Below, in pieces: positions 6,944 through 28,349 of a DNA stretch of 64,000 bases (its first letter is position 1; each line of letters opens with the position of its first letter). The translations under genes were made by a program, and so were the position numbers. Below the pieces are notes generated by a model. The model ran no database searches. It was not told the DNA's origin and was given only the letters and a program-made list of their open reading frames with translations. Origin of the DNA: Hypnocyclicus thermotrophus (GTDB taxonomy: Bacteria; Fusobacteriota; Fusobacteriia; Fusobacteriales; Fusobacteriaceae); the NCBI RefSeq assembly GCF_004365575.1, contig NZ_SOBG01000003.1, forward strand, positions 196,997-260,996, in the 5' to 3' direction.

Positions 6944-8818
6944 TTATTTGCTATCAAATTGTGTAAACCACACAATTCCCGATAACACAAAACATACACA
7001 TGGAAGAGCCACACCATTGCCCCACATCTTATACTCTGCAGAATCTGAATGCGGTTTCTGTAACCATTTTCTAATTTGGTTATCCGTCTTTGGTTTTGTA
7101 TTCTTACCGATTGCTTTTGCATGAACTTTGAAGATTTCCTTCCACAGAATAATTTCATCCTGAGTTGGATTTTTTGTTTCAAGGTTACTGCACCACCATT
7201 TTGGAAATCCCTGTAAACTTGCACATTCGATTGGTGTCAGCCTTCGGACAATATAATCAAGTCCATCAACATCATTAATAAGTGGAGGATCTTTATAATC
7301 TGTAGCTACCAAAGTGTTTGCCAGTTCTTCTTTTGCAGAAGTGAAAAACGATGCCTTACTTGCACTGTAAGTAGGATGAGCAACAGCACCTGGTCCTTTT
7401 GCAACCATAGTCGGTTCAACCTCTTCATCTACTGCAAAACTATACTTTGCATTTTCCCCTTGATTAAATGCGGCACGATCAATCCCATAAGCAACTGCAT
7501 GATGATCTGCTGTATTAAGGGTAAATGAAACCTCCTCACCGATGCCATCACCTTGTGGTCCATTCTTGTCCTTTCTGCCAATCATAGATCCTTGCAGTGC
7601 ATAGCTTTCCACCACAGCCATACCACCTTGATTACAGGATGGGTTACTACCATTAGCATCAATAGTTCTTGATGTATCTGCCTCATAAATCCCACTGTTT
7701 GGATTATCTGATTTCATAGAATTACTGTCCTTGGAACAAATACCGTATACCTTTGGCACAAACAAAGTTTGATCATTATTACAACCAAGGGTGGCTGAAA
7801 TATCATCTTGTATCAATGCACCTTTCCCGCCACCCTCACAACCACATCGGATTTTCAGTGTCTTAGGTGTTTCTACTACAAAAGGTTGATTATTACCACC
7901 AGTACCAAAAGTTGAAAGGATGGTCTGTGATACATCAAGCGGCCCCTTATATCGGGAATCCTGTGAATGATTTTCAAATACAAGTGGGGGATGATGGCTT
8001 TCTGCACGAAGGGTACAGGTCACATCTTTCGTTAGATCCATTCTTTTTCCACCTTGGTCATTTAAGCAGACAGTGCTTGTTTTTTTAATGCCCTTGATAG
8101 CATCGGAGGTAGTTCTTTGCCACGAGCGGAAGCTCTCCGCAGAATACCCAGACAAGCCTTCTGACTTAAATAATATTTCTCCGGCACCCCTACCTGCAAA
8201 ATCTGCGACAAGGAAGATACGTTTTCTTCGTTGGGGAACTCCCCAGTATTGAGCATCAAGCACCCTCCATGCAACAGAGAATCTACTACAAGTTCCCTCA
8301 TCTGCCATGATTTCTCCTGCAGCTGACCATTTCTTAGGTTTAGGCACTGTAATACCGGCATCTTTGATTTTACAGATTTCTTCGAGGACTGCCCTAAAGT
8401 CTTCTCCTTTGTTTGAGGAGAATGCTCCAGGTACATTTTCCCATACGATATATCTTGGATATTTGCCATTGGTTGCACACCTCATTTCTTTTATAATTCT
8501 TATTGCCTCATAAAAAAGGCTTGAGCGATTACCATTTAAGCCTTTTCGCTTACCTGCAACGGACATATCTTGGCAGGGTGAGCCAAATGTAATAATATCC
8601 ACTGGTTCTATTTTGGCACCATCTAGTTTTGAAACATCACCGTAATGTTTTATAAAGGGTAGCCTTTTTGTTGTTACTCTAATAGGAAACGGCTCAATTT
8701 CCGATGCCCACACAGGGGTTATACCAGATATCAAGCCGCCTAATGGAAAGCCACCCGAACCGTCAAAAAGACTACCAAGAGTAAGTCCACTCATTGACTG
8801 AGGTTTATTTTGTTTCAT
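6944..8818 (-). CDS. DNA (cytosine-5)-methyltransferase with a very large variable region (phage-borne, orphan)
   Basis: Motif I FDGSGG, motif IV GSPCQ, motif VI ENV and motif VIII QRRKR are present. The C-terminus carries RRLTPIECASLQGFP. A variable region of ~330 aa lies between motifs VIII and IX. Confidence 0.9.
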   Translation of the reverse strand: MKQNKPQSMSGLTLGSLFDGSGGFPLGGLISGITPVWASEIEPFPIRVTTKRLPFIKHYGDVSKLDGAKIEPVDIITFGSPCQDMSVAGKRKGLNGNRSSLFYEAIRIIKEMRCATNGKYPRYIVWENVPGAFSSNKGEDFRAVLEEICKIKDAGITVPKPKKWSAAGEIMADEGTCSRFSVAWRVLDAQYWGVPQRRKRIFLVADFAGRGAGEILFKSEGLSGYSAESFRSWQRTTSDAIKGIKKTSTVCLNDQGGKRMDLTKDVTCTLRAESHHPPLVFENHSQDSRYKGPLDVSQTILSTFGTGGNNQPFVVETPKTLKIRCGCEGGGKGALIQDDISATLGCNNDQTLFVPKVYGICSKDSNSMKSDNPNSGIYEADTSRTIDANGSNPSCNQGGMAVVESYALQGSMIGRKDKNGPQGDGIGEEVSFTLNTADHHAVAYGIDRAAFNQGENAKYSFAVDEEVEPTMVAKGPGAVAHPTYSASKASFFTSAKEELANTLVATDYKDPPLINDVDGLDYIVRRLTPIECASLQGFPKWWCSNLETKNPTQDEIILWKEIFKVHAKAIGKNTKPKTDNQIRKWLQKPHSDSAEYKMWGNGVALPCVCFVLSGIVWFTQFDSK

Positions 8819-13851: not shown

Positions 13852-16209
13852 TTACTCGCTTCGAGAGTAACAACGCTGCTTACCGTAAATTGGGAACATC
13901 ATTGTTCCGTTCTTGTTCCCTTTATACTTGTTCCACTCGGAGAGCTTACGCATAATAGCAGCAATAGCATATGAATCAGCAGGCTTTAATGCGGATGCCT
14001 CTTTTCCAAAACATTCACACCATATTTCCATATTACAGACAAAAGTTCGTTTAACCGACCCTTCATGGTTATCTCCACCAAATTCACTACCGTTTAAAAA
14101 ATTACGACGTTCGAATAAAGACATATTGTCCCAATCCTTAGGAAGTAAAATATCAAGGTAACTGCGAACCAATCCTTCACGCTCATCTGATTCCATTGCA
14201 TCTGCCTGTTCAAGTGTTGCAATATTAGCCTCTTGACCTTCAAGATAGAGTTTTTCTCCTTTTGCATACATAAGCAAAGTTTCTGCCCATATCTGCTCCA
14301 CATCATATACAGACATTTGCCAGGATTTCTTTTTTGATCCACCTTGTATCGGTACAGGCCAAAATCTACGGTTACCTGTTATATCTCGCAAGAACCCACT
14401 TTCAGCATTGGTTGAGCCTACAATAATACACTGTCTGGGATGACTTTCCACATTAATCCCATACGATGCACGATACTTATCATCCACACGGGTAATAAAG
14501 GATTTTACCGTTTCTACATCGGTTTTTCGCATACCATTAAGTTCTCCTAGTTCCAAAATCCAATATCCCTGCAGTTTTTCAGCACCAGATTTATCTTTCA
14601 TATCCGTAAGCGTTAAGCTATCAGAAAACCAATCCCCAGCAAGCTTTGCAAAGAATGTGGACTTACCAATTCCTTGTGGACCGTTAAGTATCAGTACACT
14701 GTCAAACTTTGTACCTGGATGATAAATACGGGTTACCGCCGCGACCATCATCTTTCTTGTAACTGCTCTTGTATAGGAATTATCAGTTGCTCCAAAATAA
14801 TCGACAAGCAAAGTTTCAACTCTTTTCACACTATCCCATTCTGGTAGGTTGTCAAGATATTCTTTTATAGGGTGATAGGCACGTTCTGCTGCTACAGCCA
14901 GTATTGCATCCTTTGTTTTTGTAGGTGAATAAATTCCATATTTATTAGAAAGATACACTTTCAATGCTGCATTATCAGAATCGCTCCAACCATCCTTCAT
15001 TTGTACCCAAGGTAGTCCGTTTTTTGCATCAATACCATCACGGTGTTTATTAAAAGCAATGGACTGTAGTTCCGAATCATTTCGAAGAATAAGAACAATA
15101 TTATCAAGGGTTTCCTTGATTTTTCCTTGCTTATCCAGTTCAAGTGCTGTCTGCCAATCACTTTGGGTAAACTCAACCACAGTTTGTTCAATACGCTCTT
15201 TTGCAAACTGAGCTTTTACTTCTTCATCTTTAATGGCAAACTCACACATAGCTATATATGACGGAAGTTTGCTGGGAGATGTTGTTTGTACTACTCTATC
15301 ATCAAGATTGCCAAATTTATGAATACGGACCATGTCAAAGGCATTGAGTAGCCTACCACTTGCAGGATCTGTCGCATGATGAGAATATGCGAACTTATCA
15401 TCATAGATAATGACACCAGCACTTGAATCAGCAGGTATATAATCATATCTGCCTGAAATAGCAGAAGGCTCATATACCTCTTTAAGAAATTTATCAATTG
15501 CTGCTCTCACGGAATAAGTACGGCAAAAAGTACCGACAACCCCCTCTTTAGAAAGCGGATCAGCCTGTTCTTTTAATGAGCGATTTATTACTTCAGATTG
15601 CCTGCTTGATACTGGCCAAGTCGTTGTATCACGCCAATCATCGTATTTATCTAAAAATATATCTGGATCAAGCAATGCCCCATCTTTTTCCTTATATACA
15701 AACTCACCGTTCCTAGAAGTGGACGGCCAATACATCAACCTTTCCGGTTCGTAGGTTGTATCGTCAAAAAGATCTATACCGATTTCTTTTGCAACCATTC
15801 GACTAACTGCTACATACTCCTCTTCACTAACATCTCTTAAAAAAGGAATAATAAGACGTAATCTTGGACTTTTCGGTGTGTGTTTATGTGTTGAATAAAT
15901 ACAACATTGATATGGAAATAAGGTGCAAATTTCTCCCCATATATTAGGTGTTCCATAATCCATATCAAGTGTAAGCATAGATCGTGATAATACATTGCCT
16001 TTCTTTCTTCTTCCATTTTTTAAATGACCACCAACAAAGCCACCAACATCCTTAATGGAATCCTGTCCACCCTTTTTCATCTTTCGATATTCTTCTTGAG
16101 TTTCGGTAGTACGTTGTGTTGTTTTGACCCGATTACAGAAATCTTCCCAAGTAACATCACTGTTTTTCCATTTCTTATCCAATCGGCTGTTACCATATGC
16201 TATTTTCAT
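13852..16209 (-). CDS. phage DNA primase / virulence-associated protein E (VirE) family, P-loop NTPase
   Basis: A 785-aa protein. The C-terminal part has a P-loop (ILNGPQGIGKST). The N-terminal part is primase-like. It sits in the replication module. Confidence 0.8.
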   Translation of the reverse strand: MKIAYGNSRLDKKWKNSDVTWEDFCNRVKTTQRTTETQEEYRKMKKGGQDSIKDVGGFVGGHLKNGRRKKGNVLSRSMLTLDMDYGTPNIWGEICTLFPYQCCIYSTHKHTPKSPRLRLIIPFLRDVSEEEYVAVSRMVAKEIGIDLFDDTTYEPERLMYWPSTSRNGEFVYKEKDGALLDPDIFLDKYDDWRDTTTWPVSSRQSEVINRSLKEQADPLSKEGVVGTFCRTYSVRAAIDKFLKEVYEPSAISGRYDYIPADSSAGVIIYDDKFAYSHHATDPASGRLLNAFDMVRIHKFGNLDDRVVQTTSPSKLPSYIAMCEFAIKDEEVKAQFAKERIEQTVVEFTQSDWQTALELDKQGKIKETLDNIVLILRNDSELQSIAFNKHRDGIDAKNGLPWVQMKDGWSDSDNAALKVYLSNKYGIYSPTKTKDAILAVAAERAYHPIKEYLDNLPEWDSVKRVETLLVDYFGATDNSYTRAVTRKMMVAAVTRIYHPGTKFDSVLILNGPQGIGKSTFFAKLAGDWFSDSLTLTDMKDKSGAEKLQGYWILELGELNGMRKTDVETVKSFITRVDDKYRASYGINVESHPRQCIIVGSTNAESGFLRDITGNRRFWPVPIQGGSKKKSWQMSVYDVEQIWAETLLMYAKGEKLYLEGQEANIATLEQADAMESDEREGLVRSYLDILLPKDWDNMSLFERRNFLNGSEFGGDNHEGSVKRTFVCNMEIWCECFGKEASALKPADSYAIAAIMRKLSEWNKYKGNKNGTMMFPIYGKQRCYSRSE

Positions 16210-16721
16210 AGAGTATCTACCTCCGCAAACTTGCTGTTAAAATACCTGACCTTTTGTTTTCGACTTTTTGCTTTATTAATTTCGATGCTCATACCGTTAG
16301 ATATTACATCTCCAAGTACCCATACCTCTTGGCATTTACCCATAAGGATAATATCCATGAAAATGGCAAGGTCACGTTCTTTCGCATCAGCATCATTCAT
16401 AAATTGTGGAAACATGAGATGAGGTGCTAGAGGAATATTTCCATTCTCTAATGCAAAACGGCAAAATTCCTGAGTTCGTTTGATGTTGCATTTGGTATTG
16501 CCACTAAAAGGGGAGCAAATGTACACCAATGGACGGAAAGCAGGTTTTAACGCTGCTTTCTCTTCCTTTACAATATTGGTTATTGCTTCATATGGAGTAG
16601 GGTCATGATATCTTTCAGCATTAAATTTATTTATGTTCATCATAACCACCTCCGTCTCTAATTTTTTTACTACATTCATTACAATATATTGCAGTACCAA
16701 ATAAATCACTTTCACCATCAC
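16206..16721 (-). CDS. DUF4406-like (nucleoside 2-deoxyribosyltransferase-like fold) protein
   Basis: The pattern VYICSPFSG...PLAPHLMFPQ...ERDLAIFMDIILMGKCQEVWVLG matches this fold. The probable start is the internal MMNINKF. Confidence 0.5.
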   Translation of the reverse strand: MMVKVIYLVLQYIVMNVVKKLETEVVMMNINKFNAERYHDPTPYEAITNIVKEEKAALKPAFRPLVYICSPFSGNTKCNIKRTQEFCRFALENGNIPLAPHLMFPQFMNDADAKERDLAIFMDIILMGKCQEVWVLGDVISNGMSIEINKAKSRKQKVRYFNSKFAEVDTL

Positions 16722-16899
16722 CTAAGATTTCTCCAATATCAACCATTACTTCAGCACCACACATTGGGCAGTGACAAAAAACATTCTCATCAGTTATTTC
16801 AATGGATATCTCCATAGAATCATTCAATCTTTCCTTCACATAAAACATAGTAAAACCCCTCCTTAATTTTTGTTTTCTTCCATCTTCAACTTGTACCAT
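16627..16899 (-). CDS. small zinc-ribbon protein
   Basis: It has C-x2-C ... C-x2-C pairs (CHCPMCG, CNECSKK). The likely start is the internal MFYVKE. Confidence 0.35.
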   Translation of the reverse strand: MVQVEDGRKQKLRRGFTMFYVKERLNDSMEISIEITDENVFCHCPMCGAEVMVDIGEILGDGESDLFGTAIYCNECSKKIRDGGGYDEHK

Positions 16900-17615
16900 T
16901 CCAAATAACGCTTACGCTGCCCGTAATCTGGAATAGCTACTAATAAGCCAACATCTACTTTTTGTAATGTATCTAGCATTGTAATCTGCTCATCAGATAG
17001 ATAGGGGCGAATGCTTTTTCCTTTTTCAATGCCATTTGCTAGTCTAAACTGCTTTGCAGTCATTCCGATAACGATGCGATTTAACATATTACATTCATTA
17101 CTGAAGTGATATGGCTTAGGATTTTCATGAAGTAGCTTTATGTTTGAGGTCAACAATGGAAATTCTTGTCTTGCAGATACAAGGGTTTTAATGAAACTCT
17201 CCATCTCGTTGAACCTGCGAATGTAAAGTTCTTTGAACTTCATTGCTTTTTGCCCTGTGTATCCCATCACCAACATTGTAAAGCCGTCTCGTGTCATAAA
17301 ATAACAGGGTAGCTTTCTGCCTGTACTGTCCTTATAAAAATCAGATTTAAAATTAGAATGAATAAAATCTTCACTCAGCCCAGATTTGGGCTCAGTAATT
17401 CTTGCAATATCCCGCAGAACATGTTTGTGTTGTTTTTCAAAGAACTCTGCCACATATAAACTGTCTACTCTTGCAGTATCCTTTCTGTCGGCAAACACTC
17501 CGTATTGATCTTTAGGTATTAATTCTCTCATCAGAATTACCTCCTTAAATTTTATTTGGAGGATTGACCTCCTACCTAGTAGCCTTGGGAGAAGGTCAAA
17601 TCTGACATTTTTCAA
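16863..17615 (-). CDS. Rha-family phage regulatory protein (antirepressor-like)
   Basis: The N-terminal block VDSLYVAEFFEKQHKHVLRDI is the Rha signature. The probable start is at MRELIPK. Confidence 0.65.
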   Translation of the reverse strand: MKNVRFDLLPRLLGRRSILQIKFKEVILMRELIPKDQYGVFADRKDTARVDSLYVAEFFEKQHKHVLRDIARITEPKSGLSEDFIHSNFKSDFYKDSTGRKLPCYFMTRDGFTMLVMGYTGQKAMKFKELYIRRFNEMESFIKTLVSARQEFPLLTSNIKLLHENPKPYHFSNECNMLNRIVIGMTAKQFRLANGIEKGKSIRPYLSDEQITMLDTLQKVDVGLLVAIPDYGQRKRYLEWYKLKMEENKN

Positions 17616-18144
17616 AAATTTCTTTTAATTTTTTCTCTGCGCGTTTTAGTTTTTTTGTAATGTTATTTTCATTTACACCTAAGCTCTTGGCATATTCTCT
17701 TATAGGAGTTCCATCGATTCTTACTGCAATAAAGATGTCTGCCCATTCCTGTTTTTTACCAAGAGCAGAACGTATTTTTTGACATACATCCTCATATTCA
17801 TATTGGTGATTACGTTCAATTTCTTGTGTATCGTCTGCAATGGTATCCATTACGTCAGTTTCATCCTCAGATTCATCATCCTTGCGGTAGGGAGTCTTTG
17901 GATTGCCAAGATGTCTATGATATCTACGCCAGTGGTTGTATTCTTTACTGTTCATGAGGTCAAACATTTCCTGTACAGTCTCACAACGCTTTACTTCTGC
18001 CTTCTTTTCTGGCTTTGCCTCTGCAAGACGTTGCTCATAGTCAATATCTAGCATGACACTGTAATCATTATCTGGAATTTCAATTGTGGTGTAGAACTTG
18101 TGACCGTTTTTGATGTTGTCTTCATATAAAACTCGAATCTTCAT
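17596..18144 (-). CDS. sigma-70 region-4-like / ECF-sigma-like phage protein
   Basis: The C-terminal segment IFIAVRIDGTPIREYAKSLGVNENNITKKLKRAEKKLKE is a sigma region-4-type HTH. A GGAAAGGAA RBS precedes the ATG. Confidence 0.45.
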   Translation of the reverse strand: MKIRVLYEDNIKNGHKFYTTIEIPDNDYSVMLDIDYEQRLAEAKPEKKAEVKRCETVQEMFDLMNSKEYNHWRRYHRHLGNPKTPYRKDDESEDETDVMDTIADDTQEIERNHQYEYEDVCQKIRSALGKKQEWADIFIAVRIDGTPIREYAKSLGVNENNITKKLKRAEKKLKEIFEKCQI

Positions 18145-18335
18145 TAAGTATTCCTTTCCGTCCTGTCATTGGGCGGCGGAATACAAAAAGAGCCTGTGGC
18201 TAAGATGACCACAGACTCCACTTGTCCAAAATTGGGCGCAGGAAACCACGGTGGGTGCATCTTCATTCCAAACACAGTCTTTATCACTGTGTTCTGAACT
18301 CTTATGCATCCCGCCGTCCTAATGCGCATCTCGGA
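18145..18335 (-). promoter_or_regulatory. GC-rich structured 5' leader with embedded intrinsic terminator (candidate attenuator/antitermination element)
   Basis: On the minus strand, a 10-bp stem hairpin (GAGUCUGUGG/CCACAGGCUC) followed by UUUUUGUAUU ends ~40 nt before the start codon. Long-range GC arms (GGGCGGCGG at 18171-18180 and CCCGCCGTCC at 18306-18318) and a second hairpin (ACACAGT...ACTGTGT) can form alternative structures. Confidence 0.4.
18183..18219 (-). terminator. intrinsic terminator inside the leader
   Basis: The minus-strand stem-loop GAGUCUGUGG-UCAUCUUAG-CCACAGGCUC is followed by a U-run. Confidence 0.5.
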
Positions 18336-18449
18336 CATTGAGATATTATTTTATATAGAGTGAGTCTCTATATTTACATTGTAATGAGAAATTGAACCCT
18401 CCTGTTGGACTTGTTGCGTCCTATACTGTGACAGTTGCAATAGATTGAG

Positions 18450-18500
18450 AAAAAAATAAAAAAGCCATACACAAACTCATAATTGAGTTCATGTATGGCT
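18450..18500 (-). terminator. rho-independent terminator
   Basis: The minus-strand stem GCCATACA...TGTATGGC is followed by TTTTTTATTTTTTT. Confidence 0.55.
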
Positions 18501-18511
18501 CATATATTATG

Positions 18512-18545
18512 TAAAAGTGGACGAGGTACGTCCACTTTATATTTT
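18512..18545 (-). terminator. rho-independent terminator
   Basis: The minus-strand stem AAAGTGGACG-TACC-CGTCCACTTT is followed by T-rich sequence immediately after the stop of the 627-aa gene. Confidence 0.6.
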
Positions 18546-18549
18546 AATT

Positions 18550-20433
18550 TTATACTGCAATATTATGGTCATGTAAAAAGTCAAATATTGATTCCATAGA
18601 TTGCTTTGATAGGTGAGTCAATGCAAAATCATACCATATATGTTCTTGTTTACAAAAGTTTAAAGTGCAAGGCGATTTATCAATAATATGCTTACTGATG
18701 TTGGGTGGTAAATGTAATCCTAGACAAATTAATACCAACGTATTTATAGAAGGATCACGTTTACCATTCGCAATTCTGCTAATTGTCTGGTCATCAACCA
18801 TAATTTTCTTTTCTAACTCCTTATACGTAATTCCACGCCATTTTAACACAACTTTCAATGATTCACAAAAATCATTTGGCAAAGACTTATATACTCTCAT
18901 TTCATCCATAACAACATCTTCTACTAATTTGATTTGTTTATCATGGTCAGCATATGCATAACCATCACCATATACGATATTAAAACTTACTGTTGAATCC
19001 TTATCCTTATTGAGAAAACATACACTATGATAATCCTTTTTAGTTCCAGACTTGACTGTCATGTCAAAAACAAGACAGCATTCTTCCATATGATTACGAG
19101 CGTAATCAGTTAATATAGTAAATTCATTATCATCTTGGGTTAAATATTTAGGATGATTAAATACGAAATGTGCATCAACATATTGATAACTACCATCCCC
19201 AACAAGTCTAGATAATTTTTGATTTGTTATGCTCTGTATAGCTGCCTCTTCTGCACTAATAGAAAAAGTCTGATGTTCTTTTAATATGCCCTTTTTAAAA
19301 CGATGTGTAGCAACATATCTTCCATCAATATATGTAAATGTGCCTATTGCTTCCTCAAATCCAGCATCTACCATTCGAATTTTTGCTGCAGTACGAGATA
19401 CACAGAAAAAGGTTGATAATGCATCTATAACAGGTTCAATAACATCAATAATATCAAACTTCCCAGTTGATTCTCGAAATTGTTTAATAAATTTCCATGC
19501 CTGAGTTTTGAACATACCCATTGGCATTTGGATTCTCGGAGCAAGTGCATTTGCCTGCCATTCCATCCATTCTGTCGCGTCTCTACTATTGCCAGCAACA
19601 CCACCAATAGCTTGGCACTTAATTCTACTAGCTTCACTATTGTACAAACGCTCAAGTTCAAAAGCCTTTCGATGTTTATCCCAATGAACACACTCATGGA
19701 TGATGGTATTATTAACTTTACCTAGGTTATACAAAAAATAAGTTTCAGGGTCAACAAATATGGTTTTTTCATTTACATCTACTGACACTAATTCATCTGA
19801 GTCTTTATCATAAAACTCAGATGTACTATTATGAAAAAATATTTGGCCAAAAACAGAGCAATCCTTTGTGATATTCCTTACTTCAATATTCAAGCCCATT
19901 CCCTTAGCAAGTTCCATTGGATCAACTGGCATGGGTTGTAACAATGCTTTAGGATAATAATCCTTTAAAAACTGTGTTGCTATCTCTTCTAGCTGATTTT
20001 TATAAATAATTGGCACAAGAGCATCTGACATAGGTTTGGGTTGTTTATTTTTGTTGGTATACTCAGCTACACTTAAAATTGCAAAGTCATTTAAATTACA
20101 CTCCAGATTTCCAGAACATTTCAGCGTAAACCACTGACTACAATATTCCGATTCATCATAATGATAATCTGCCTCACGAACTTCCAGTTCAACCCCAACA
20201 ACGACATCAAATTCTATTTCCATATCTGGTAAATCACTAACAGATACAAACTTTACTTCTATATCTGATAATTCTATACCACCTATCTTTCTAACTCTAT
20301 ATAGCTGTAAATCCAAATTATTATAATTATCCGTGGCATAACTCTGTATAGCAGCATACATTTCATTTTCGAACCTATCTGCCACATAATCCCTAAAAGA
20401 ACGATTACCCGCCATTACAACAACCCCCTCCAA
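18550..20433 (-). CDS. ImmA/IrrE-family HEXXH metallopeptidase domain protein with C-terminal XRE-type HTH (627 aa)
   Basis: The peptidase motif IIHECVHWDKH is preceded by an ImmA-like N-lobe (PVDPMELAKGMGLNIEV...IFVDP). The C-terminal HTH reads ITYKELEKKIMVDDQTISRIANGKRDPSINTLVLIC. The gene is divergent from the plus-strand operon. Confidence 0.7.
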   Translation of the reverse strand: MEGVVVMAGNRSFRDYVADRFENEMYAAIQSYATDNYNNLDLQLYRVRKIGGIELSDIEVKFVSVSDLPDMEIEFDVVVGVELEVREADYHYDESEYCSQWFTLKCSGNLECNLNDFAILSVAEYTNKNKQPKPMSDALVPIIYKNQLEEIATQFLKDYYPKALLQPMPVDPMELAKGMGLNIEVRNITKDCSVFGQIFFHNSTSEFYDKDSDELVSVDVNEKTIFVDPETYFLYNLGKVNNTIIHECVHWDKHRKAFELERLYNSEASRIKCQAIGGVAGNSRDATEWMEWQANALAPRIQMPMGMFKTQAWKFIKQFRESTGKFDIIDVIEPVIDALSTFFCVSRTAAKIRMVDAGFEEAIGTFTYIDGRYVATHRFKKGILKEHQTFSISAEEAAIQSITNQKLSRLVGDGSYQYVDAHFVFNHPKYLTQDDNEFTILTDYARNHMEECCLVFDMTVKSGTKKDYHSVCFLNKDKDSTVSFNIVYGDGYAYADHDKQIKLVEDVVMDEMRVYKSLPNDFCESLKVVLKWRGITYKELEKKIMVDDQTISRIANGKRDPSINTLVLICLGLHLPPNISKHIIDKSPCTLNFCKQEHIWYDFALTHLSKQSMESIFDFLHDHNIAV

Positions 20434-20585
20434 CAGGCAATATAATAAAATATATTTTTCTGACTTTTAACTTTCTTACATTTTTTACATATCCCTTTGG
20501 ATAATATTGTAACACTCAAAAATAGATGTTTCAATCGTTTTAACTAAATATTCTTGTTATCACAACAATTTTCATGCAATATACA

Positions 20586-20614
20586 TTGTTTTTTACACTT
20601 CCAAATGATATAAT
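20586..20614 (+). promoter_or_regulatory. candidate sigma-70 promoter for the plus-strand HTH/ASCH/methyltransferase operon
   Basis: TTGTTT-N17-TATAAT, followed by short inverted repeats (TTGTT ATCAC AACAA upstream). Confidence 0.35.
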
Positions 20615-20682
20615 TTTAAAAGCGACAAATTATTTAGTCGTTATTATTCAAAGTTTTATATTTTATTGAGAGGTGGAAATAG

Positions 20683-20898
20683 ATGCCTATAAGTTACAAA
20701 AAATTATGGAAATTACTTATTGACAAAGATATGAAAAAAAAAGACTTACAGATTGCTGCTGGAATAAGCTCTTCTTCCATCACGAAAATGGCAAAAAATC
20801 AGAATGTAAACACTGAAACGTTAACTAAAGTTTGCAAAGCACTTGACTGTGATATTTCTGATATAGTTGAGATTGTAAATGACAAACCTCCTAACTAA
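20683..20898 (+). CDS. XRE-family HTH transcriptional regulator (71 aa)
   Basis: An HTH_3/HTH_26-like sequence (KKKDLQIAAGISSSSITKMAKNQNVNTETLTKVCKALDCDISDIV). A GAGGTGG RBS precedes the start. Confidence 0.7.
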   Translation: MPISYKKLWKLLIDKDMKKKDLQIAAGISSSSITKMAKNQNVNTETLTKVCKALDCDISDIVEIVNDKPPN

Positions 20899-21167
20899 TC
20901 TTATCTAAGTTTTTTATTTTACTTAATAGCATATTACTTTCAACTAATTATATATCTTTCACAATGATGTAAAGTTTAAAAAGTTGTTACACTATTTAAA
21001 TTATTGAAAGTAAGTTTGCAAACTGATTATATTTTATAAAGATTGTCAATTCCAATTAGCACAAGATGATACTGTAAATATATTGCTTAAATCATACAAG
21101 CCATCAGATTGTAATCAAAAAAAATATATTATAACAATGATAAAAATCAGGAGGTAAAACCGATACA

Positions 21168-21635
21168 ATGACACCAATAATGAGTTTTTGGCCAAGCATT
21201 TATGAAAAGATTTTAAACCAAATTAAATTAATTGAATACCGTAGGACTTTTCCAAAAGACTGCAAATTCGCTTATATGTATGTTAGTAAACCGGTAAAAG
21301 CAGTTTGTGGAATTTTATATTTTGGTGAAAAACATACGCTTTCAGATTGGAAAGAAAAATATTCTAATAGTTTTGAGATTTCTACTAGAATTGATGAGTA
21401 TCTCAAGAATTACAGATATGGCATGGAAATTAAGGGTTTTCAAAAGGTTTATCCCATAACTTTAGATGACTTGCGAAAAAATGTCCCTGGATTTGTTGCC
21501 CCTCAATCATATTTACTACTAGAAAATAATAAAAATCTTGCAGAATACTTAGAAAGAAATCTTGTTCTTGTTGGTGAAAAAATTGAAAATGACTTTTCAA
21601 ATGCCTATCCAGAGCATGTTTGTAAGAGGTATTAA
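21168..21635 (+). CDS. ASCH-domain (PUA-like) protein
   Basis: The ASCH signature K-x2-E-x-R is present in NQIKLIEYRR (K20, E23, R25), followed by a YMYVSKPVKAVCGILYFGE beta-barrel-like block. An AGGAGG RBS precedes the start. The stop lies 3 nt before the methyltransferase start. Confidence 0.55.
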   Translation: MTPIMSFWPSIYEKILNQIKLIEYRRTFPKDCKFAYMYVSKPVKAVCGILYFGEKHTLSDWKEKYSNSFEISTRIDEYLKNYRYGMEIKGFQKVYPITLDDLRKNVPGFVAPQSYLLLENNKNLAEYLERNLVLVGEKIENDFSNAYPEHVCKRY

Positions 21636-21638
21636 ATA

Positions 21639-22724
21639 ATGTTAAAAGTATTTGAAGCGTTTGCTGGATATGGAAGTCAACGTCTAGCCCTAAAAAATGC
21701 AAACATACCTCATGAGATTGTTGGTATATCAGAAATCGATGGTGATGTAATTCGTTCATATGCTGCAATCCATGAAAATTTATTGGAAGAAAGAAAAAAG
21801 GAATTATTGATTTCAGATGAGCAAATGCTTAATTTTCTAGAAAAAATCAATGTTCCACTCGATTATAAGACTTTTAAAAACAAAGCAAAGAATTTAAAGG
21901 GTCAAAAGTTAAAAGACATGTATCTTGCTAATAAACTTAGTAAAAATTTTGGGGATATTCGTACAATTAACCCCGATAAATTACCGGACTTTGATTTTTT
22001 TACATACTCATTTCCTTGCCAAGATATTTCTATTGCTGGTTATCAAAATGGATTAGATGCAGACTCAGGGACTCGCTCTTCACTTCTTTGGGAATGCTGC
22101 AAAATTATTGAAAAAAAGAGGCCGAAATATTTAATGATGGAAAACGTAAAAAACCTAATCGGTAAAAATCACATAAAAAACTTTGAAGAATTCTTACTCT
22201 ATTTAAAAAGATTAGGATATAAAAACTATTGGGATGTATTAAACGCTCGTGATTATGGAATTCCTCAAAATAGAGAAAGAGTATTTTGTATCAGTATTCT
22301 TGATAGCCATGAAGAATTCACGTTTCCACCAATCAGAGAACTATCTATTTTTATGAACGATCTATTAGAAGATGATGTCCCCATTAATTTTTATTTAAAA
22401 AATAATCAAGTAAGTGATGAACCTATTAGTCAAGATTATATTTATTGCCTAGATTCAAATTATTGGAAAGGTACATTTTTAAAAGATTTTCGTACTAAAA
22501 AAAGACGACAATTAGTATCAGGACCCGTTCGGGATGATGGAAAATATCCAGCAAGGCGACTAACCCCTAGAGAAACTTGGCGATTTATGGGAGTTAATGA
22601 TGCCGATTTTGATAAGGCTAGTAAATTAGTAAGTAACACAAGTCTATACAGACAAGCTGGAAATAGCATTGTAGTTCCAGTCTTAGAAGCAATATATAAA
22701 AAATTATTTTTACATAAGGAGTGA
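21639..22724 (+). CDS. DNA (cytosine-5)-methyltransferase
   Basis: Motif I FEAFAGYGSQ, motif IV SFPCQD, motif VI ENVKNL and motif VIII GIPQNRERVF are present. An ~80-aa insertion lies between motifs I and IV. Confidence 0.9.
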   Translation: MLKVFEAFAGYGSQRLALKNANIPHEIVGISEIDGDVIRSYAAIHENLLEERKKELLISDEQMLNFLEKINVPLDYKTFKNKAKNLKGQKLKDMYLANKLSKNFGDIRTINPDKLPDFDFFTYSFPCQDISIAGYQNGLDADSGTRSSLLWECCKIIEKKRPKYLMMENVKNLIGKNHIKNFEEFLLYLKRLGYKNYWDVLNARDYGIPQNRERVFCISILDSHEEFTFPPIRELSIFMNDLLEDDVPINFYLKNNQVSDEPISQDYIYCLDSNYWKGTFLKDFRTKKRRQLVSGPVRDDGKYPARRLTPRETWRFMGVNDADFDKASKLVSNTSLYRQAGNSIVVPVLEAIYKKLFLHKE

Positions 22725-22730
22725 AAAAAT

Positions 22731-23540
22731 ATGACTAACAAAGAACGAATCATTCAATTATTTTATGCTAATGTAAAAGGAAGACGCCCAGACACAACAG
22801 GCTCAAACATTCATCATGATGGTAGAGAAGGTCATTGGTTAGAACGCCAATTCGGAATAAGTGCCAACGCATCAAACGAAGCTGATTTATTTGGATATGA
22901 ATTAAAAAATGAAACCACAAGTAAGACTACTTTTGGTGATTGGTCTGCAAACAGATATATTTTTAAAACTGGTGAATATGTGCATTGTTTTGATGGCAAC
23001 ACTGCCTCTGATCGCCAAGATAGTTTTTGTAGGATATTTGGTAAACCAAACCCACTTAAAGGTGGTAGATACTCTTGGTCTGGGAGCCCATGCCCAACTA
23101 TTCATGGTTATAATAATTTTGGACAGGTACTTATAATAGATAATAATAAAGACATTATTGCCATATATTCTTATAGCCAAGATAAGCGTATAAACAAATC
23201 ACAAGTCGTTCCCGTTGAATTACGACAAGACAATTTAGAAATAGCTAGATGGTTTGGAGAATATTCGCCAACTTCTAAACGAACCGACAAATGTCTTCAG
23301 GCCAAATTGGAAGATAAATTTAATCATGAGGGTTGGTTTACTTGTAAAAAAGGTCTAGATGGAACATATCAAAAAATTTGTTTCGGAGAGCCTATAACCT
23401 ATGATAATTGGTTGAACTTAGTCAAAAAAGGTATTGTGTTTTTTGATAGCGGAATGTACCAAGGAAATAAAAGACCATATTCACAATGGAGAGCTAATAA
23501 TTCATTTTGGGATAGTTTAATTATAGAATGTTATGAATAA
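22731..23540 (+). CDS. MutH/Sau3AI-family PD-(D/E)XK endonuclease, single domain (269 aa)
   Basis: EGHWLERQFGISANASNEADLFGYELK aligns with the MutH block [26 protein letters not shown]. The catalytic D52, E57 and K59 are retained. Confidence 0.6.
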   Translation: MTNKERIIQLFYANVKGRRPDTTGSNIHHDGREGHWLERQFGISANASNEADLFGYELKNETTSKTTFGDWSANRYIFKTGEYVHCFDGNTASDRQDSFCRIFGKPNPLKGGRYSWSGSPCPTIHGYNNFGQVLIIDNNKDIIAIYSYSQDKRINKSQVVPVELRQDNLEIARWFGEYSPTSKRTDKCLQAKLEDKFNHEGWFTCKKGLDGTYQKICFGEPITYDNWLNLVKKGIVFFDSGMYQGNKRPYSQWRANNSFWDSLIIECYE

Positions 23541-23554
23541 CAAGGAGGTATATC

Positions 23555-25105
23555 ATGTTTAAGCTAACTAATGAAATTAAAATAGTCATTAACCATATAC
23601 CTTTACCATGGATTCCAAAAATTGAATTATATTATCCTGATTTGCCACAATTCCCCATTATTTATATCAATACATATGTTAATAAACAGCGAATTCTTGC
23701 TTGCCCAGTTGCTGTAAGTTACCAAATAGAAGAGAATTCTTGCAATGCCATATTCACTGTTTTAACTAATGTAGAATCAAATGAACTCACTAATGAAAAA
23801 ATTAAATTAGAGCTATCTGAGCGTATTGGATATTCAGAAAAAATATCAAAATCAGATGTTATTGAATGTTGCAATGGGAACGAACAATATATAGCTTTAT
23901 TCACAGATCTTTGGGAGTACATTCAATTTTCATATGGGGAATTTGTTCCCTATGGTAAGTTCTACGAGGAGATTTTTTCAATTATTCGCTTTGTCGCTGC
24001 ATGGCAACCTAAAACCGGAAGACAAAGTGAAATGCGTATGCTATATAATTTCATGAGTGCTTTTGGTGAAAAAGTTGTAATGCCAAAAAAATGGAGTCAT
24101 CTAGAGTTTTATGCTATTCCTAACTTATACGATGTATCAAATAGTTGTTTTCTTCAATTTCCAAAATTTTCAACACTTAAGTCTGCAATGAACAAATTAT
24201 TTGATGAATATTTTATTAAAAATATTAATATTAATGGCATAGAATTTAAAGTGATGGAGCATGCGTGGAAGCAAAACAAAGATAGCTTTATATCAAATGT
24301 AACCGATCCTATGTTTTCTAGAGGGATATTATCTGAAGAAGAAAAACTTTATGCTGAAACGTTAGTTGATGCTTTTAATCGTCATGCATGGAGAGCAGCA
24401 TATTTCATAAGTGCTTTTATGAATATTAAAAATAACTACAGTATGTGGACAAAAAAATTTTTTATGGATTTTTATAAGAATGGAAATAAATTAAAAGGAT
24501 ATTCTGAAAAAGTAATTGCTTGTTTTTTACAACAAGGATTTCTTAATCCTGAAGTAATACCAATTGATACTTGGGTAAAAACTTTCTATGAATTTCCATT
24601 AGGGATTAATACTAACACCCAGTTTTTCAATGAATTTTCAAACCTAGGAAAATTAGAACGAATTATTTGGCTTTCCAGTCAATCAAACAAGACCAATATG
24701 AAAACTTTCTTTGATATTCTTTGGTGTCAGCGGTATGGAACAATTGGAAATGGAGAACTAAGAGGTATTAATCCTATTGCTTGTTACAGTTGCCAACTTA
24801 AAAATAGCTGTGTTGGTGTAGCAAAAAAAAGATTTACTAATGTTAAGCTATTAAACAACTCTTCAAATTCTGAAGAAAATTTATCTGCAATTTTTGAATA
24901 TAACCCTGAAATAACTTATATTTGTATTTTATATAACGGTGTTCCAAAGAAATGCTATGTTAGAAAAAAAGGCATAGCAACTCTGATAGACGAATTTAGC
25001 GGATATATATTAACAGCGCAAAACAAACTATCTGATGATTTATTACATAAAGGTACTATAACTTTTGAAGAATTTATTTTTTCCAAAAATAAAAACCATG
25101 AATAA
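23555..25105 (+). CDS. 516-aa protein with Endonuclease-III-like HhH-GPD glycosylase signature and Cys cluster
   Basis: GYSEK(319)VIACFLQQGFLNPEVIPID(338)TW parallels the Nth block GVGRK(120)TANVVL...VD(138)THV. Cysteines 391, 410, 413 and 419 give C-x18-C-x2-C-x5-C, and the Asp-to-first-Cys spacing is like Nth. Large N- and C-terminal extensions are unassigned. Confidence 0.5.
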   Translation: MFKLTNEIKIVINHIPLPWIPKIELYYPDLPQFPIIYINTYVNKQRILACPVAVSYQIEENSCNAIFTVLTNVESNELTNEKIKLELSERIGYSEKISKSDVIECCNGNEQYIALFTDLWEYIQFSYGEFVPYGKFYEEIFSIIRFVAAWQPKTGRQSEMRMLYNFMSAFGEKVVMPKKWSHLEFYAIPNLYDVSNSCFLQFPKFSTLKSAMNKLFDEYFIKNININGIEFKVMEHAWKQNKDSFISNVTDPMFSRGILSEEEKLYAETLVDAFNRHAWRAAYFISAFMNIKNNYSMWTKKFFMDFYKNGNKLKGYSEKVIACFLQQGFLNPEVIPIDTWVKTFYEFPLGINTNTQFFNEFSNLGKLERIIWLSSQSNKTNMKTFFDILWCQRYGTIGNGELRGINPIACYSCQLKNSCVGVAKKRFTNVKLLNNSSNSEENLSAIFEYNPEITYICILYNGVPKKCYVRKKGIATLIDEFSGYILTAQNKLSDDLLHKGTITFEEFIFSKNKNHE

Positions 25106-25155
25106 AAAAAAGCATCACCCGCATTGGATACAACCATCTGCGAGTGATGTTTTTC
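25106..25155. terminator. bidirectional terminator between convergent genes
   Basis: An A-run, then the hairpin CATCACCCGCA...TGCGAGTGATG, then TTTTTCTTAT. Confidence 0.45.
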
Positions 25156-26340
25156 TTATAAAATCCTATATTGACCTAAATAATCAAGCATGCTTTTAGC
25201 AACTGCATCAATAACGTTAATACATACTGAATTACCAAACTGCTTATAAGCTTGAGAATTTGAAACAGCAATAATAAATTCTTCAGGAAAGCCTTGTAAT
25301 CTAGCACATTCTCGTGGGGTTAACATTCTAGGATTCTTCCCATTTTGCTCAATTAATGCTTCGCTTCCATCCTTATAATATCTTGCACTAATGGTGCTCG
25401 TATACTTGCTGTTTGAATTAAACAAACAAAAACCAAATCCATTTCCTTTCTTTTTATGTGCTTTCTTTCTTTCTAAGTGACCTTGATACAATTTGTCTGA
25501 TATTGTAAATCTATCAGGTACTTCCTTTTCTAAAATCATTCCTACATTAACACTGTCATCCACGTAACCCTTTGGATATTTAAACTTCACAAAATCAGCC
25601 GGTAGGTAATCTTTATTGAATCCAACAATAATAATACGTTCTCTATTTTGAGGTACCCCAAAGTGGTAAGCGTTCAATACTTCCGGTTCAGGTACGTAAT
25701 AATTTAGTTCATTGAGAATCGAAAGAATTACTTTCAAAGTTCTTCCTTTATCATGGCCACGTAATTGTTTCACATTTTCAAGCATAAATGCTTTTGGTCG
25801 TTTTTCCCTTAAAATTTTAGCAATATTAAAGAATAATGTACCACGCGCATCTTCAAATCCTTTTTTTAACCCCGCTTGAGAAAATGGTTGGCACGGAAAT
25901 CCTGCCAACAAAATATCATGATCTGGAATATCTTTTTCGTCAATTTGCGTAATATCTCCTGCGGGCATTTCACCATAATTTATCCTATAAGTTTTTTGAG
26001 CAAATTTATCCCATTCTGATGAAAATACTGTTCGACCGCCATGGCGCTGAAAACCTAGTCTAATACCACCAATTCCGGCAAACAAATCTATCTGAGTAAA
26101 TCTACTATTTTCTATGCTTGGTGCAACAAAAGGAGGCTCTGTGGGAAAGGCTAATATTTTCTTATAAACCTCATCTGGAACTTCCTTCTTGTCAGTTTCC
26201 CAAAACTTTAATTCTTTTTCTTCTTCTTTGCTTAAACCAAGAGCATCTGAAAATTCCTTACGAGTAACATCTATTTTTTTTCTAATATTTGTTATAATTT
26301 GACCTTTTGTCAATTCAATACTCACGCTAGTGTTAGTCAT
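25156..26340 (-). CDS. DNA (cytosine-5)-methyltransferase with N-terminal HTH extension
   Basis: Motif I DLFAGIGG, motif IV GFPCQPFS, motif VI ENVKQL and motif VIII GVPQNRERIII are present. The first ~90 aa are HTH-like, as in autoregulatory C5-methyltransferases. Confidence 0.9.
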   Translation of the reverse strand: MTNTSVSIELTKGQIITNIRKKIDVTRKEFSDALGLSKEEEKELKFWETDKKEVPDEVYKKILAFPTEPPFVAPSIENSRFTQIDLFAGIGGIRLGFQRHGGRTVFSSEWDKFAQKTYRINYGEMPAGDITQIDEKDIPDHDILLAGFPCQPFSQAGLKKGFEDARGTLFFNIAKILREKRPKAFMLENVKQLRGHDKGRTLKVILSILNELNYYVPEPEVLNAYHFGVPQNRERIIIVGFNKDYLPADFVKFKYPKGYVDDSVNVGMILEKEVPDRFTISDKLYQGHLERKKAHKKKGNGFGFCLFNSNSKYTSTISARYYKDGSEALIEQNGKNPRMLTPRECARLQGFPEEFIIAVSNSQAYKQFGNSVCINVIDAVAKSMLDYLGQYRIL

Positions 26341-26573
26341 TATTTTATTTCTTCTCCTTCTCCTTTTTTACAATCATCTATGTATAACAATTCTGCTACC
26401 TCACAATCAAAGAGCGAACATAATTTTTCAATGGTTTTATAATTAATCCTAGTAGCCTTATCATTATACAGATTAGAAACTGTCGTTCTAGAAAGTTTAG
26501 TTCTCTCGTGTACTTCTTGTATTGAAAATCTATGTTCTCCCATCAAAGTTGATAACCTGCAATGAAGTTTCAT
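26340..26573 (-). CDS. small XRE-type HTH protein (controller-like)
   Basis: The HTH reads FSIQEVHERTKLSRTTVSNLYNDKATRINYKTIEKLCSLFDC. The probable start is an internal ATG with an AGGAGGAG RBS; the ORF track gives 26340..26678. The stop overlaps the methyltransferase start. Confidence 0.6.
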   Translation of the reverse strand: MKLHCRLSTLMGEHRFSIQEVHERTKLSRTTVSNLYNDKATRINYKTIEKLCSLFDCEVAELLYIDDCKKGEGEEIK

Positions 26574-26996
26574 AATCTCCTCCTTGATAACCAAAATCAT
26601 ATTCATTTTAACATTAATGTTGGTTAAATTCAAGGATATATCATGATAATTAATTATCCCCAAAAAGACTATAATCAAAATTTTTACATGGTAAAAGTCA
26701 GTAAATAAATAACATCTGAAATTTATAACTCGAAAAAGCTATTTATTTATCAGCATTTTTACTCTTAATCATTCAATCAATACAAGCAGTATATCAAAGT
26801 TAATTATATTTTGATTTAAATACATCTATCCTGTCTTCTCAACCTACCCAAAAGCAATCCTGTCCACTCAACTATGCCACTTTTTCACAGTGGATATATT
26901 CCCACAAAGCACTCATTTAACAAGGGGTTATGCCATTCTGCAAATCAGCAAAATACACAGAACCCTTTATTTCCTACACTTTCAAGCTTTCTATTT

Positions 26997-28349
26997 CTAC
27001 ACCCTTGACATCAATACCACCGTCTCCACATGGCTTGTTTGCGGAAACATATCTACAATAGATAGATTCATTAGTTTATATCCATTTTCTACTAATATTC
27101 CTATATCTCTTGCAAGTGTAGAAGGATTGCAAGAGATATATACTAATTCATTTATATTTTTATCTATTACTTCTTGCAAAGAATTTTTGTCTATTCCTTT
27201 TCTTGGTGGATCAAAAATTATAGAGTCTATTTTTTCATCACTATTTAATAATTTTGTTAACCCATTTTCTACAGTATCATTTATAAAAGTAATATTTGAT
27301 ATATTATTTTCTTTTGCTGTTTTTTCAGCATCTTTTGAAGATGATTCAGCTAATTCTATAGAAAATATTTTTTTTGCTTGTTTAGATAATATCATTCCTA
27401 TTGTTCCAGTTCCAGAATATGCATCTACAATATTTTTATTATTTATATTATTAAAATATGAAATTGCTAATTCATATAATTTTTTTGTTTGTTCTATATT
27501 TATTTGAAAAAAAGATGTAGGCGATATATTAAAATTTATATCAAATAAATTTTCTTTTATTGTTTCTTCTCCATATAACAAAATATTTTTATTTCCAAGT
27601 GCAAAATTTGTTTTATTATTATTAATTGAAATATATATAGAAATTACATTTTTATATTTATTATAAGTATCTTTTAGTATTTTTTTTAACTCTTTTATAA
27701 TGTTTCCTTTTATAATTACTACAAGCATTATTTCACCATTAGAATTTACTCTTGCCATTAAATTTCTTAACATACCTTTATGTTTTCTTTCATCATAAAT
27801 AGTTAGTTTTTTTTCAGAAAATCTATTTTTTAAATACGTAAAAATTTTATTAATTTCTTTTGGTTGTAGGTAATTATCTTTTACTTCAAATATTTCATGT
27901 GATCTCCTTTTATAAAATCCAGATATTACTTTTCCATTTCTATATCCAATTTGTTCTATCACCTTATTTCTATAATTAAATATTGTGTTAGCTAAAAGTA
28001 CTTTGTCAAATTGAATATTATCAATTTTCGCAATTCTAGAAAACACCTCTTTTACCATTTCTTTTTTATATTCAATTTGTTTTTCATAGTTTATCATTGC
28101 AAAATCACAACCATGATAATCTTCAAAACTTATTTTTTCACTACTTACTCTATCTATTGAAGGCTTTATTACTTTTTTTATAAGTCCTCTTGCATAAGTT
28201 TTTTTATTTGAAATTATCTCCACTTTCAATTTATCTCCTGGAACAGACATTGGCACAAAAATTGCAATATCATTATAATATCCTAGTCCTTCTCCGCCAA
28301 AAACTATTTTATCAATACTTACCTCTATCAAATCTCCTATTTTCAGCAT
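26997..28349 (-). CDS. 23S rRNA (uracil-5)-methyltransferase RlmD/RumA family (TRAM + class I MTase)
   Basis: An N-terminal TRAM-like domain and the C-terminal motif DMFPQTSHVETVVLM are present. Confidence 0.85.
   Translation of the reverse strand: MLKIGDLIEVSIDKIVFGGEGLGYYNDIAIFVPMSVPGDKLKVEIISNKKTYARGLIKKVIKPSIDRVSSEKISFEDYHGCDFAMINYEKQIEYKKEMVKEVFSRIAKIDNIQFDKVLLANTIFNYRNKVIEQIGYRNGKVISGFYKRRSHEIFEVKDNYLQPKEINKIFTYLKNRFSEKKLTIYDERKHKGMLRNLMARVNSNGEIMLVVIIKGNIIKELKKILKDTYNKYKNVISIYISINNNKTNFALGNKNILLYGEETIKENLFDINFNISPTSFFQINIEQTKKLYELAISYFNNINNKNIVDAYSGTGTIGMILSKQAKKIFSIELAESSSKDAEKTAKENNISNITFINDTVENGLTKLLNSDEKIDSIIFDPPRKGIDKNSLQEVIDKNINELVYISCNPSTLARDIGILVENGYKLMNLSIVDMFPQTSHVETVVLMSRV

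Follow-up and report, generated by a model that had tools for sequence, protein, structure and literature searches.

What is a predicted DNA glycosylase doing in a restriction-modification (R-M) cassette? The question is raised by T516, an open reading frame (ORF) of 516 amino acids at 23555..25105 on the forward strand of a 64,000-nucleotide stretch of the Hypnocyclicus thermotrophus genome (contig NZ_SOBG01000003.1, positions 196,997 to 260,996; the whole stretch is hereafter called the window). Its predicted fold and its catalytic motif make a firm case that it represents a new family of HhH-GPD glycosylase/lyases equipped for catalysis. From about 85 loci in bacteria and archaea, we conclude with equal firmness that its function depends on a C5 cytosine methylase of the CCNGG/CCWGG clade and not on which nuclease accompanies it. 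Where the flanks can be read, a C5 methylase stands next to the gene, and with few exceptions it is of the Dcm/SsoII/DrmMII type, which makes C(m5C)NGG or C(m5C)WGG sites. Tentatively, and at somewhat less than even chances, we read T516 as a repair glycosylase/lyase directed at methylated sites, similar to MBD4 or ROS1.

The ORF starts with ATG, stops with TAA, carries an AAGGAGG Shine–Dalgarno sequence 7 nt before the start codon and is 100% identical to the NCBI hypothetical protein EV215_0937 of H. thermotrophus. Between T516 and the convergent methylase gene MT2 lies a hairpin (25108..25154; –21.6 kcal/mol, z –6.7), preceded by an A-run and followed by a U-run and likely a bidirectional terminator, although the output of a consensus terminator scan did not include it. 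The ORF is real, and so is the signature that an initial annotation, made from the sequence alone, had described in it.

Predicted fold and catalytic residues of T516

Sequence searches with T516 gave zero matches in Pfam, NCBIfam, PADLOC and PHROGs and, by phmmer as well as by profile search, in the PDB. When 27 family members were scanned singly against Pfam, none matched any model, and PF00730 (HhH-GPD), OGG_N and AlkA_N were left unmatched at E ≤ 1. A profile search of 1.84 billion cluster representatives returned 168 clusters, all of them family members or fragments, and no bridge to canonical HhH-GPD families. The UniRef label "PcfJ-like" was dropped, as no Pfam match backs it. For conservation, we used two alignments, A1 with 35 homologues at 47–85% identity and A2 with 27 members down to 22% identity; A2 contained no stretch conserved enough for locus searching, and the sub-alignments A1 and A3 were used for that instead.

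The initial annotation had proposed an Endonuclease III-like catalytic signature in a novel scaffold and had named a structure prediction lacking the HhH-GPD fold as evidence against it. The AlphaFold2 (AF2) model, with a predicted local distance difference test (pLDDT) score of 90.6, displays that fold, two-lobed and helical with a helix-hairpin-helix (HhH) element. In structure comparisons, the joint best scores of 14.7 were obtained for A. fulgidus AlkA (PDB 2jhj; 251 residues aligned) and human OGG1, followed by C. acetobutylicum Ogg (14.3), E. coli AlkA (14.0) and S. pombe Mag1 (9.1); the Nth family (NTHL1 and Endonuclease III) reached 6.6–7.7, ROS1 bound to a T:G mismatch 6.6, Mig.MthI 6.5 and MutY 6.0–6.4. 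Judged by the model, T516 comes closest in architecture to the two-domain AlkA/OGG1 type rather than to Endonuclease III. Between 244 and 251 residues align to two-domain AlkA/OGG1 chains and beta strands occur in residues 6–71; given the aligned length, the N-terminal domain is probably similar in fold to the TATA-binding protein (TBP-like) and packed on the HhH-GPD core.

The modeled protein divides into an AlkA_N/OGG_N-like alpha/beta domain (residues 1–135; 23555..23959), an HhH-GPD helical core (residues about 139–425; 23969..24829) and a beta-rich C-terminal domain (residues 424–516; 24824..25102), all on the forward strand. The core includes an invariant block, P152–F166 (PKTGRQSEMRMLYNF), and the HhH hairpin with the Gly/Pro loop and the Asp motif (residues 312–340; 24488..24574). 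The roughly 300 N-terminal residues that the initial annotation had left unassigned are accordingly an AlkA/OGG1-type N-domain and the first half of the core in the model, and the 90 unassigned C-terminal residues a separate small domain. The weaker PD-(D/E)XK pattern that the annotation had pointed out, D217...E230-x-K232, did not hold: the D is found in 8 and the E in 5 of the 35 homologues, and the region forms a beta-hairpin insertion within the helical domain.

The C-terminal domain has conserved positions at P464, K466 and D479-E480-F481-x-G483. It showed weak PUA-like matches, including THYN1 bound to 5-methylcytosine (5mC) DNA and the readers of the modification-dependent nucleases PD-T4-3, VcaM4I and McrB-N, while a Foldseek search with this domain by itself gave no significant match. 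It is possibly a PUA-like base reader of the YTH/EVE/ASCH type, one that would recognize 5mC.

The initial annotation had read the key residues correctly, down to every spacing: K319 (codon 24509–24511), D338 (24566–24568) and Cys391-x18-Cys410-x2-Cys413-x5-Cys419 (24725..24811, forward strand), with 53 residues from the Asp to the first Cys. K319, D338 and the four Cys are invariant across the 35 homologues of A1 and present in 26 of the 27 sequences of A2, the exceptions being the locally garbled P0164 and the truncated P0163. Because of this invariance and near-invariance, the signature is more than a chance pattern; the cysteines, which could have varied among homologues, are conserved.

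G315 and P336-x-D338 are likewise invariant and correspond to the Gly/Pro-rich loop and the catalytic Asp of HhH-GPD proteins. Aligning A2 with human OGG1 (sequence identical to PDB 1ko9) by hhalign gave a single, weak local match (E 0.012) of T516 residues 312–340 to OGG1 residues 242–270. In it, K319 falls on K249, the nucleophile of OGG1, and D338 on D268, consistent with the structural result. The glycosylase register proposed for the two residues thus stands, while the parallel drawn to Nth and MutY needs refinement, the Lys–Asp spacing of 19 being that of OGG1. K319 lies at the start of the second HhH helix, as the Lys does in the bifunctional glycosylase/lyases Nth and OGG1; it would be the nucleophile that forms the Schiff base, with Asp338 serving as catalytic acid/base. 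The Cys loop was rightly described as Nth-type and conserved among homologues. Its C-x2-C-x5-C spacing equals that in Nth, MutY and Mig, and the N-P preceding it resembles the K-P-x-C of Nth; the first spacing differs, with C-x18-C in T516 versus Cys-x6-Cys in Nth. We regard the loop as a putative [4Fe-4S] cluster site.

Gene neighborhoods across the family

In the window, the genes on the forward strand run in the order small helix-turn-helix (HTH) protein, ASCH protein, MT1, LlaMI-family endonuclease and T516, which starts 14 nt past the endonuclease gene. The latter (22731..23540) had been taken for a MutH-like nickase; by Pfam it is instead a type II restriction endonuclease of the LlaMI family (CC^NGG), distantly related to MvaI/BcnI (RE_LlaMI 1.8e-74, MvaI_BcnI 6e-8; PADLOC REase_II 1.3e-120). 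MT1 (21639..22724) is a C5 cytosine methyltransferase (Pfam DNA_methylase 3e-78; PADLOC MTase_II 1e-205). Directly upstream of it lies p155 (21168..21635), a 155-residue ASCH (PUA-like) protein (A5 profile to Zymomonas 5guq/5gus, E 3.5e-16; PADLOC PDC-M11B 5e-11), whose gene stays with MT1 even in a T516-less cassette on a Vagococcus plasmid (L034). The small HTH_26 protein at 20683..20898 (Pfam 3e-19) is a candidate controller of the forward-strand operon and has homologues directly upstream of T516 in L012, L018 and L020.

MT2 (25156..26340, reverse strand) is a C5 cytosine methyltransferase of Dcm/SsoII/DrmMII type (Pfam 2.4e-106, domain from residue 81; PADLOC DrmMII 2e-112) and has its own upstream HTH gene, encoding a small HTH_26 protein (26454..26678, reverse strand; Pfam 6e-17; ORF start at 26678, TTG). 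Its target recognition domain (TRD) motif, TISARYYKDGSE, is common to 38 of 51 partner methylase ORFs, with the pattern T[LI]SARY[YHF]KDG[SA]E. An 80-residue N-terminal extension precedes the methylase domain and resembles the regulatory N-terminal region described for M.SsoII (PMC3978073); MT2 homologues in Gastranaerophilales lack it, their matches beginning at residue 84–85.

The subfamily of the window, T516A, was found in 25 species-representative genomes, from Bacillota, Negativicutes, Bacteroidales, Spirochaetes, Alphaproteobacteria and Melainabacteria to Methanobrevibacter and DPANN archaea, and also in 7 IMG/VR contigs and 1 of 72,556 plasmids; there was none among 50,697 phage records. 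Wherever the flanks of a T516A locus could be used, they contain an MT2-type C5 methylase (25/25 genome loci). Of these loci, about 80% carry LlaMI, about 65% MT1 and roughly half the ASCH gene. Three DPANN loci consist of Vsr, T516 and a convergent methylase, with no LlaMI gene, and the Vagococcus plasmid holds nearly the same LlaMI cassette (MT2, ASCH, MT1 and endonuclease) without T516. In three Bacillaceae loci (L004, 6757–7839; L015; L022), an AlkA/Mag-type 3-methyladenine glycosylase (E 1.3e-52 to 2h56) and a MazG-like gene stand divergent beside T516, which suggests a small DNA-sanitation cluster on an R-M system. The Methanobrevibacter cassette (L021, 10001–13875) shows decay, with frameshifts in T516 and MT1 and no LlaMI gene left, but MT2 and Vsr intact.

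For the distant subfamily T516B, which shares about 25% identity with T516, the analysis covered 61 metagenome loci (L048–L108). Its recurring module consists of a Dcm/DrmMII-type methylase, T516B and one mismatch-repair gene. The methylase is present in 47 of the 61 loci, and in 25 of the 26 with complete flanks a C5 methylase lies within 3.5 kb. Gene junctions are tight or overlapping, with methylase-to-T516 gaps of –47 to +18 nt in 13 loci. The mismatch-repair gene is either Vsr or Mig-like, the two sharing the same cassette slot and being mutually exclusive. The Mig-like neighbor (227 residues; E 1.3e-27 to Mig.MthI, 1kea) has a C-x6-C-x2-C-x5-C loop and Tyr (GPY or GEY) at the Lys position; T516, with its Lys, falls outside the monofunctional class of Mig and MutY, which have Tyr or Ser there.

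A conventional nuclease is encoded in at least 16 of the 26 complete T516B loci. The types found in T516B cassettes are EcoRII-C (Pfam 1.5e-58), MvaI/BcnI (1.3e-46), two kinds of HNH, two PADLOC REase_II types and a candidate PD-ExK-like protein. Over the whole family, the partners of T516 comprise LlaMI, MvaI/BcnI, EcoRII-C, HNH, other REase_II types and DISARM DrmABC. The last occurs in L036 (1–11236), a class-2 DISARM system (DrmA 7e-304, DrmB 6e-221, DrmC 4e-50, DrmMII 6e-151) in which T516B and Vsr lie on either side of the DrmMII methylase; a 1025-residue protein sits where DrmE might be expected.

The cassette of the window lies in a compositionally distinct island. The GC content is 32–39% in the first 28 kb and 24% beyond. 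CCNGG occurs once in 14715–28236, versus 11.9 ± 3.4 expected, a value reached by 0 of 200 simulations; in the AT-rich host side (28237–64000), 17 were observed versus 13.0 expected, and thus there is no avoidance. These patterns indicate a foreign, recently acquired and mobile island, and the avoidance of CCNGG there also supports this motif as the specificity of the system. The same cassette sits in a prophage of Alkalihalobacillus (L001). Outside the cassette, the island contains a third C5 methyltransferase-like region (about 7190–8791, reverse strand; tblastn 29% identity to MT1 and MT2, E 1e-16). Adjoining the cassette is a 627-residue protein (18550–20433, reverse strand) with a C-terminal HTH_3 and an ImmA/IrrE-like (capP/Peptidase_M78-type) region; since a 62% identical copy stands at the same position beside the Alkalihalobacillus cassette, the protein may travel with it.

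Repair, restriction and other readings

As a methylase-side accessory, T516 would provide base-excision repair dedicated to the sites of its partner. The C-terminal PUA-like domain would read the intact 5mC on one strand, and the HhH-GPD core would flip out a lesion base on the opposite strand and receive it in its pocket, most probably T (or U) opposite G from a deaminated target cytosine. Lys319 would then displace the base and beta-elimination nick the strand, after which host gap filling would restore C and the methylase re-methylate the site. In favor of this reading, T516, like Vsr, follows the methylase whatever the nuclease, and the genes beside it in Bacillaceae are of repair type. 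To our knowledge, all characterized enzymes of HhH-GPD fold act in repair or demethylation. There are also precedents: Mig.MthI is linked to M.MthTI, MBD4 pairs a methyl reader with an HhH-GPD core, much as T516 would with its putative reader, and ROS1, whose Lys, Asp and iron-sulfur set that of T516 recalls, excises T from T:G.

The points that weigh against the repair reading concern overlap with known repair genes, the catalytic Lys and the behavior of the gene. Vsr adjoins T516A in 8 loci (3 near-identical gut-metagenome contigs among them), and among the 26 complete-flank T516B loci, 11 have Vsr, 11 a Mig-like gene, none both and 4 neither; on the T516B tree, Vsr and Mig have been swapped several times and T516 has never replaced either. 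A version in which T516 simply substitutes for Vsr is weakened because Vsr or a Mig-like gene is usually in the same cassette. There is strong reason to conclude that T516 is not just the T:G mismatch enzyme of the cassette, a role that Vsr or Mig fills interchangeably, and on the repair reading T516 must handle some substrate state or reaction step left uncovered by those two. It could, for instance, act on hemi-deaminated but otherwise methylated sites or on U:G pairs that the methylase creates, or supply the lyase step once Vsr or Mig has acted. The Lys is absent from the T:G glycosylases of this fold that we know of (Mig and MBD4). Immediately upstream of T516 stand small HTH genes, of three types in all, and one cassette type is ordered controller, T516, restriction enzyme, a layout that one would sooner expect for a toxic gene than for a repair gene. 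Pseudogene copies of T516 stand beside an intact methylase in L021, L098 and L104, and among the loci examined no intact T516 without a methylase was seen. Finally, a family with 168 clusters among 1.84 billion representatives is rare.

Several of these points would be accommodated if T516 were itself a methylation-guarded restriction glycosylase/lyase and hence founded a second family of base-excision restriction enzymes, unrelated in structure to R.PabI, which we consider possible but doubtful. Such an enzyme would remove a base from unmodified CCNGG/CCWGG sites, perhaps the unmethylated target cytosine, and nick by beta-elimination, producing breaks with blocked 3′ ends; the partner methylase would shield host DNA, and the C-terminal reader could veto hemimethylated sites. 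T516 would be the sole restriction component in methylase–T516–Vsr triads and elsewhere a second effector sharing the methylase with LlaMI, EcoRII, MvaI/BcnI, HNH or DISARM. The strict dependence on the C5 methylase and the one-sided decay of T516 are as expected of such a gene, and the retention of Vsr or Mig alongside it would be explained. Many cassettes resemble R-M-V triads with tight or overlapping junctions, the upstream HTH genes (HTH_3 or HTH_26, HTH_45 and ArsR-like) appear dedicated and controller–T516–endonuclease operons exist. The capacity of the HhH-GPD fold to excise a correctly paired cytosine derivative is seen in DME and ROS1. The invariant Lys would give strand cleavage, as in R.PabI (PMC5388411, PMC10273834). 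The chief objection is that most cassettes already hold a conventional nuclease, with six or more unrelated families represented, so that T516 as a restriction enzyme would usually be redundant. The near-identical R-M cassette of Vagococcus works as a unit without T516, which is therefore dispensable for restriction and protection and in this respect behaves like Vsr, a point for the repair reading. Moreover, no HhH-GPD enzyme is known to restrict, and the genes next to T516 in Bacillaceae are of a kind that serves repair or sanitation.

To see whether T516 restricts, we turned to the avoidance of recognition sites, which proved genuine and sequence-specific: T516A cassettes are depleted of CCWGG and CCSGG alike, T516B cassettes of CCWGG alone. 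In T516A cassettes, we observed 11 CCWGG versus 71 expected and 1 CCSGG versus 26.7 expected; the corresponding counts for T516B cassettes were 94 versus 218 and 225 versus 204. These patterns fit a CCNGG specificity for T516A and a Dcm-like one for T516B. In favor of restriction, the cassettes of the DPANN Vsr–T516–methylase triads without LlaMI avoid CCNGG, with 4 sites observed versus 13.7 expected, while their flanks do not. Vsr-type three-gene operons without a recognized nuclease speak against it, having 33 CCWGG versus 43 expected, a comparison confounded by Vsr itself. Among T516B loci, those of Mig type are depleted of CCWGG even in the flanks (about 0.3 of expected) and those of Vsr type are not. 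Vsr repair has a site-restoring bias, which the contrast may reflect. Because avoidance tracks Vsr versus Mig, it does not discriminate between repair and restriction. Whether T516 adjoins the nuclease or the methylase gene was mixed and uninformative beyond chance.

A different kind of repair, which we hold unlikely, would have T516 remove other damage produced by the C5 methylase, for instance N3-methylcytosine or a further alkylation lesion at the target site, and so let the cassette establish in hosts without oxidative AlkB repair, many of them anaerobes. One of the two best structural matches, A. fulgidus AlkA, is said, in 2007 work by Leiros et al., to excise 1-methyladenine and 3-methylcytosine. 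Many of the hosts are indeed anaerobes or DPANN archaea, and an AlkA/Mag-type glycosylase adjoins T516 in the Bacillaceae loci. Alkylation damage by C5 methylases is known, M.SssI being mutagenic in alkB-deficient E. coli (bioRxiv 10.64898/2026.01.24.701492), and the role would not overlap with Vsr or Mig. Yet enzymes that excise cationic alkylated bases work as monofunctional glycosylases, with no need of a Lys nucleophile, while the Lys of T516 is invariant; the fold match to OGG1 is equally strong, several hosts are aerobic Bacillaceae and the role would be duplicated where a separate AlkA-type enzyme is present. Still more improbable, to the point that we give it little weight, is a prokaryotic 5mC (or 5-hydroxymethylcytosine) glycosylase of DME/ROS1 type that erases or attacks the modification, with the C-terminal domain as its reader. 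T516 has the same catalytic inventory as DME and ROS1 (Lys, Asp and iron-sulfur loop), and the C-domain matches to THYN1 and to PD-T4-3, VcaM4I and McrB-N would agree with such a role; excision of 5mC would, however, attack the DNA of a host carrying the obligatory partner methylase, and the strict methylase linkage is the opposite of what modification-dependent systems show.

Relation to known enzymes

By fold and catalytic motif, T516 is a member of the HhH-GPD superfamily, but it fails the sequence definition of every curated family, PF00730 included, and should not be filed under the Endonuclease III, OGG1, AlkA, MutY or Mig families. OGG1 and AlkA share its TBP-like N-terminal domain and HhH-GPD core without detectable sequence similarity; they lack both the iron-sulfur-type Cys loop and the C-terminal domain, AlkA also lacks the Lys, and their context is housekeeping whereas that of T516 is a methylase. 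Endonuclease III, MutY and Mig.MthI combine, as T516 does, an HhH-GPD core with a C-terminal C-x2-C-x5-C loop, and Nth has the same Lys/Asp pair. Endonuclease III is a single-domain protein of about 210 residues, and T516 falls outside it in sequence as well as in architecture. Mig.MthI shares with T516 the linkage to a C5 methylase.

MBD4 follows the same design principle, an HhH-GPD glycosylase with a possible 5mC reader that acts where methylation occurs, but has neither the Lys nor the iron-sulfur cluster; the reader of T516 would be of another fold, possibly PUA-like to judge from the weak matches, and not an MBD. DME and ROS1 have a Lys, Asp and iron-sulfur set like that of T516, and ROS1 also removes T from T:G. 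R.PabI, which has both glycosylase and lyase activity and a methylase as its partner (PMC5388411, PMC10273834), is a possible functional analogue; its HALFPIPE fold is unrelated to that of T516, and the PabI reviews report no HhH-GPD member. Vsr shows the same genomic behavior, following C5 methylases whatever the nuclease, but its fold and chemistry are unrelated, and it co-occurs with T516 and is not replaced by it. In the searchable literature, we found no description of the T516 family or of any HhH-GPD restriction glycosylase.

What is new, then, is a glycosylase family, a combination of domains and a tightly constrained genomic niche. HhH-GPD is among the best studied repair folds, and yet this family escapes every sequence profile tried. 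It joins features otherwise split between subfamilies: the N-domain of OGG1/AlkA, a Lys/Asp pair in OGG1 register, an Nth-type iron-sulfur loop and a putative base reader. The strict coupling to CCNGG/CCWGG methylases, in bacteria and archaea and in R-M as well as DISARM systems, points to a cost or an opportunity of 5mC beyond those handled by Vsr and Mig. If the repair reading is true, T516 would be a prokaryotic counterpart of MBD4/ROS1 carried on mobile R-M cassettes; if the restriction reading is true, it would be a second kind of restriction glycosylase. The enzyme could also serve as a base-excision reagent specific for site and methylation state.

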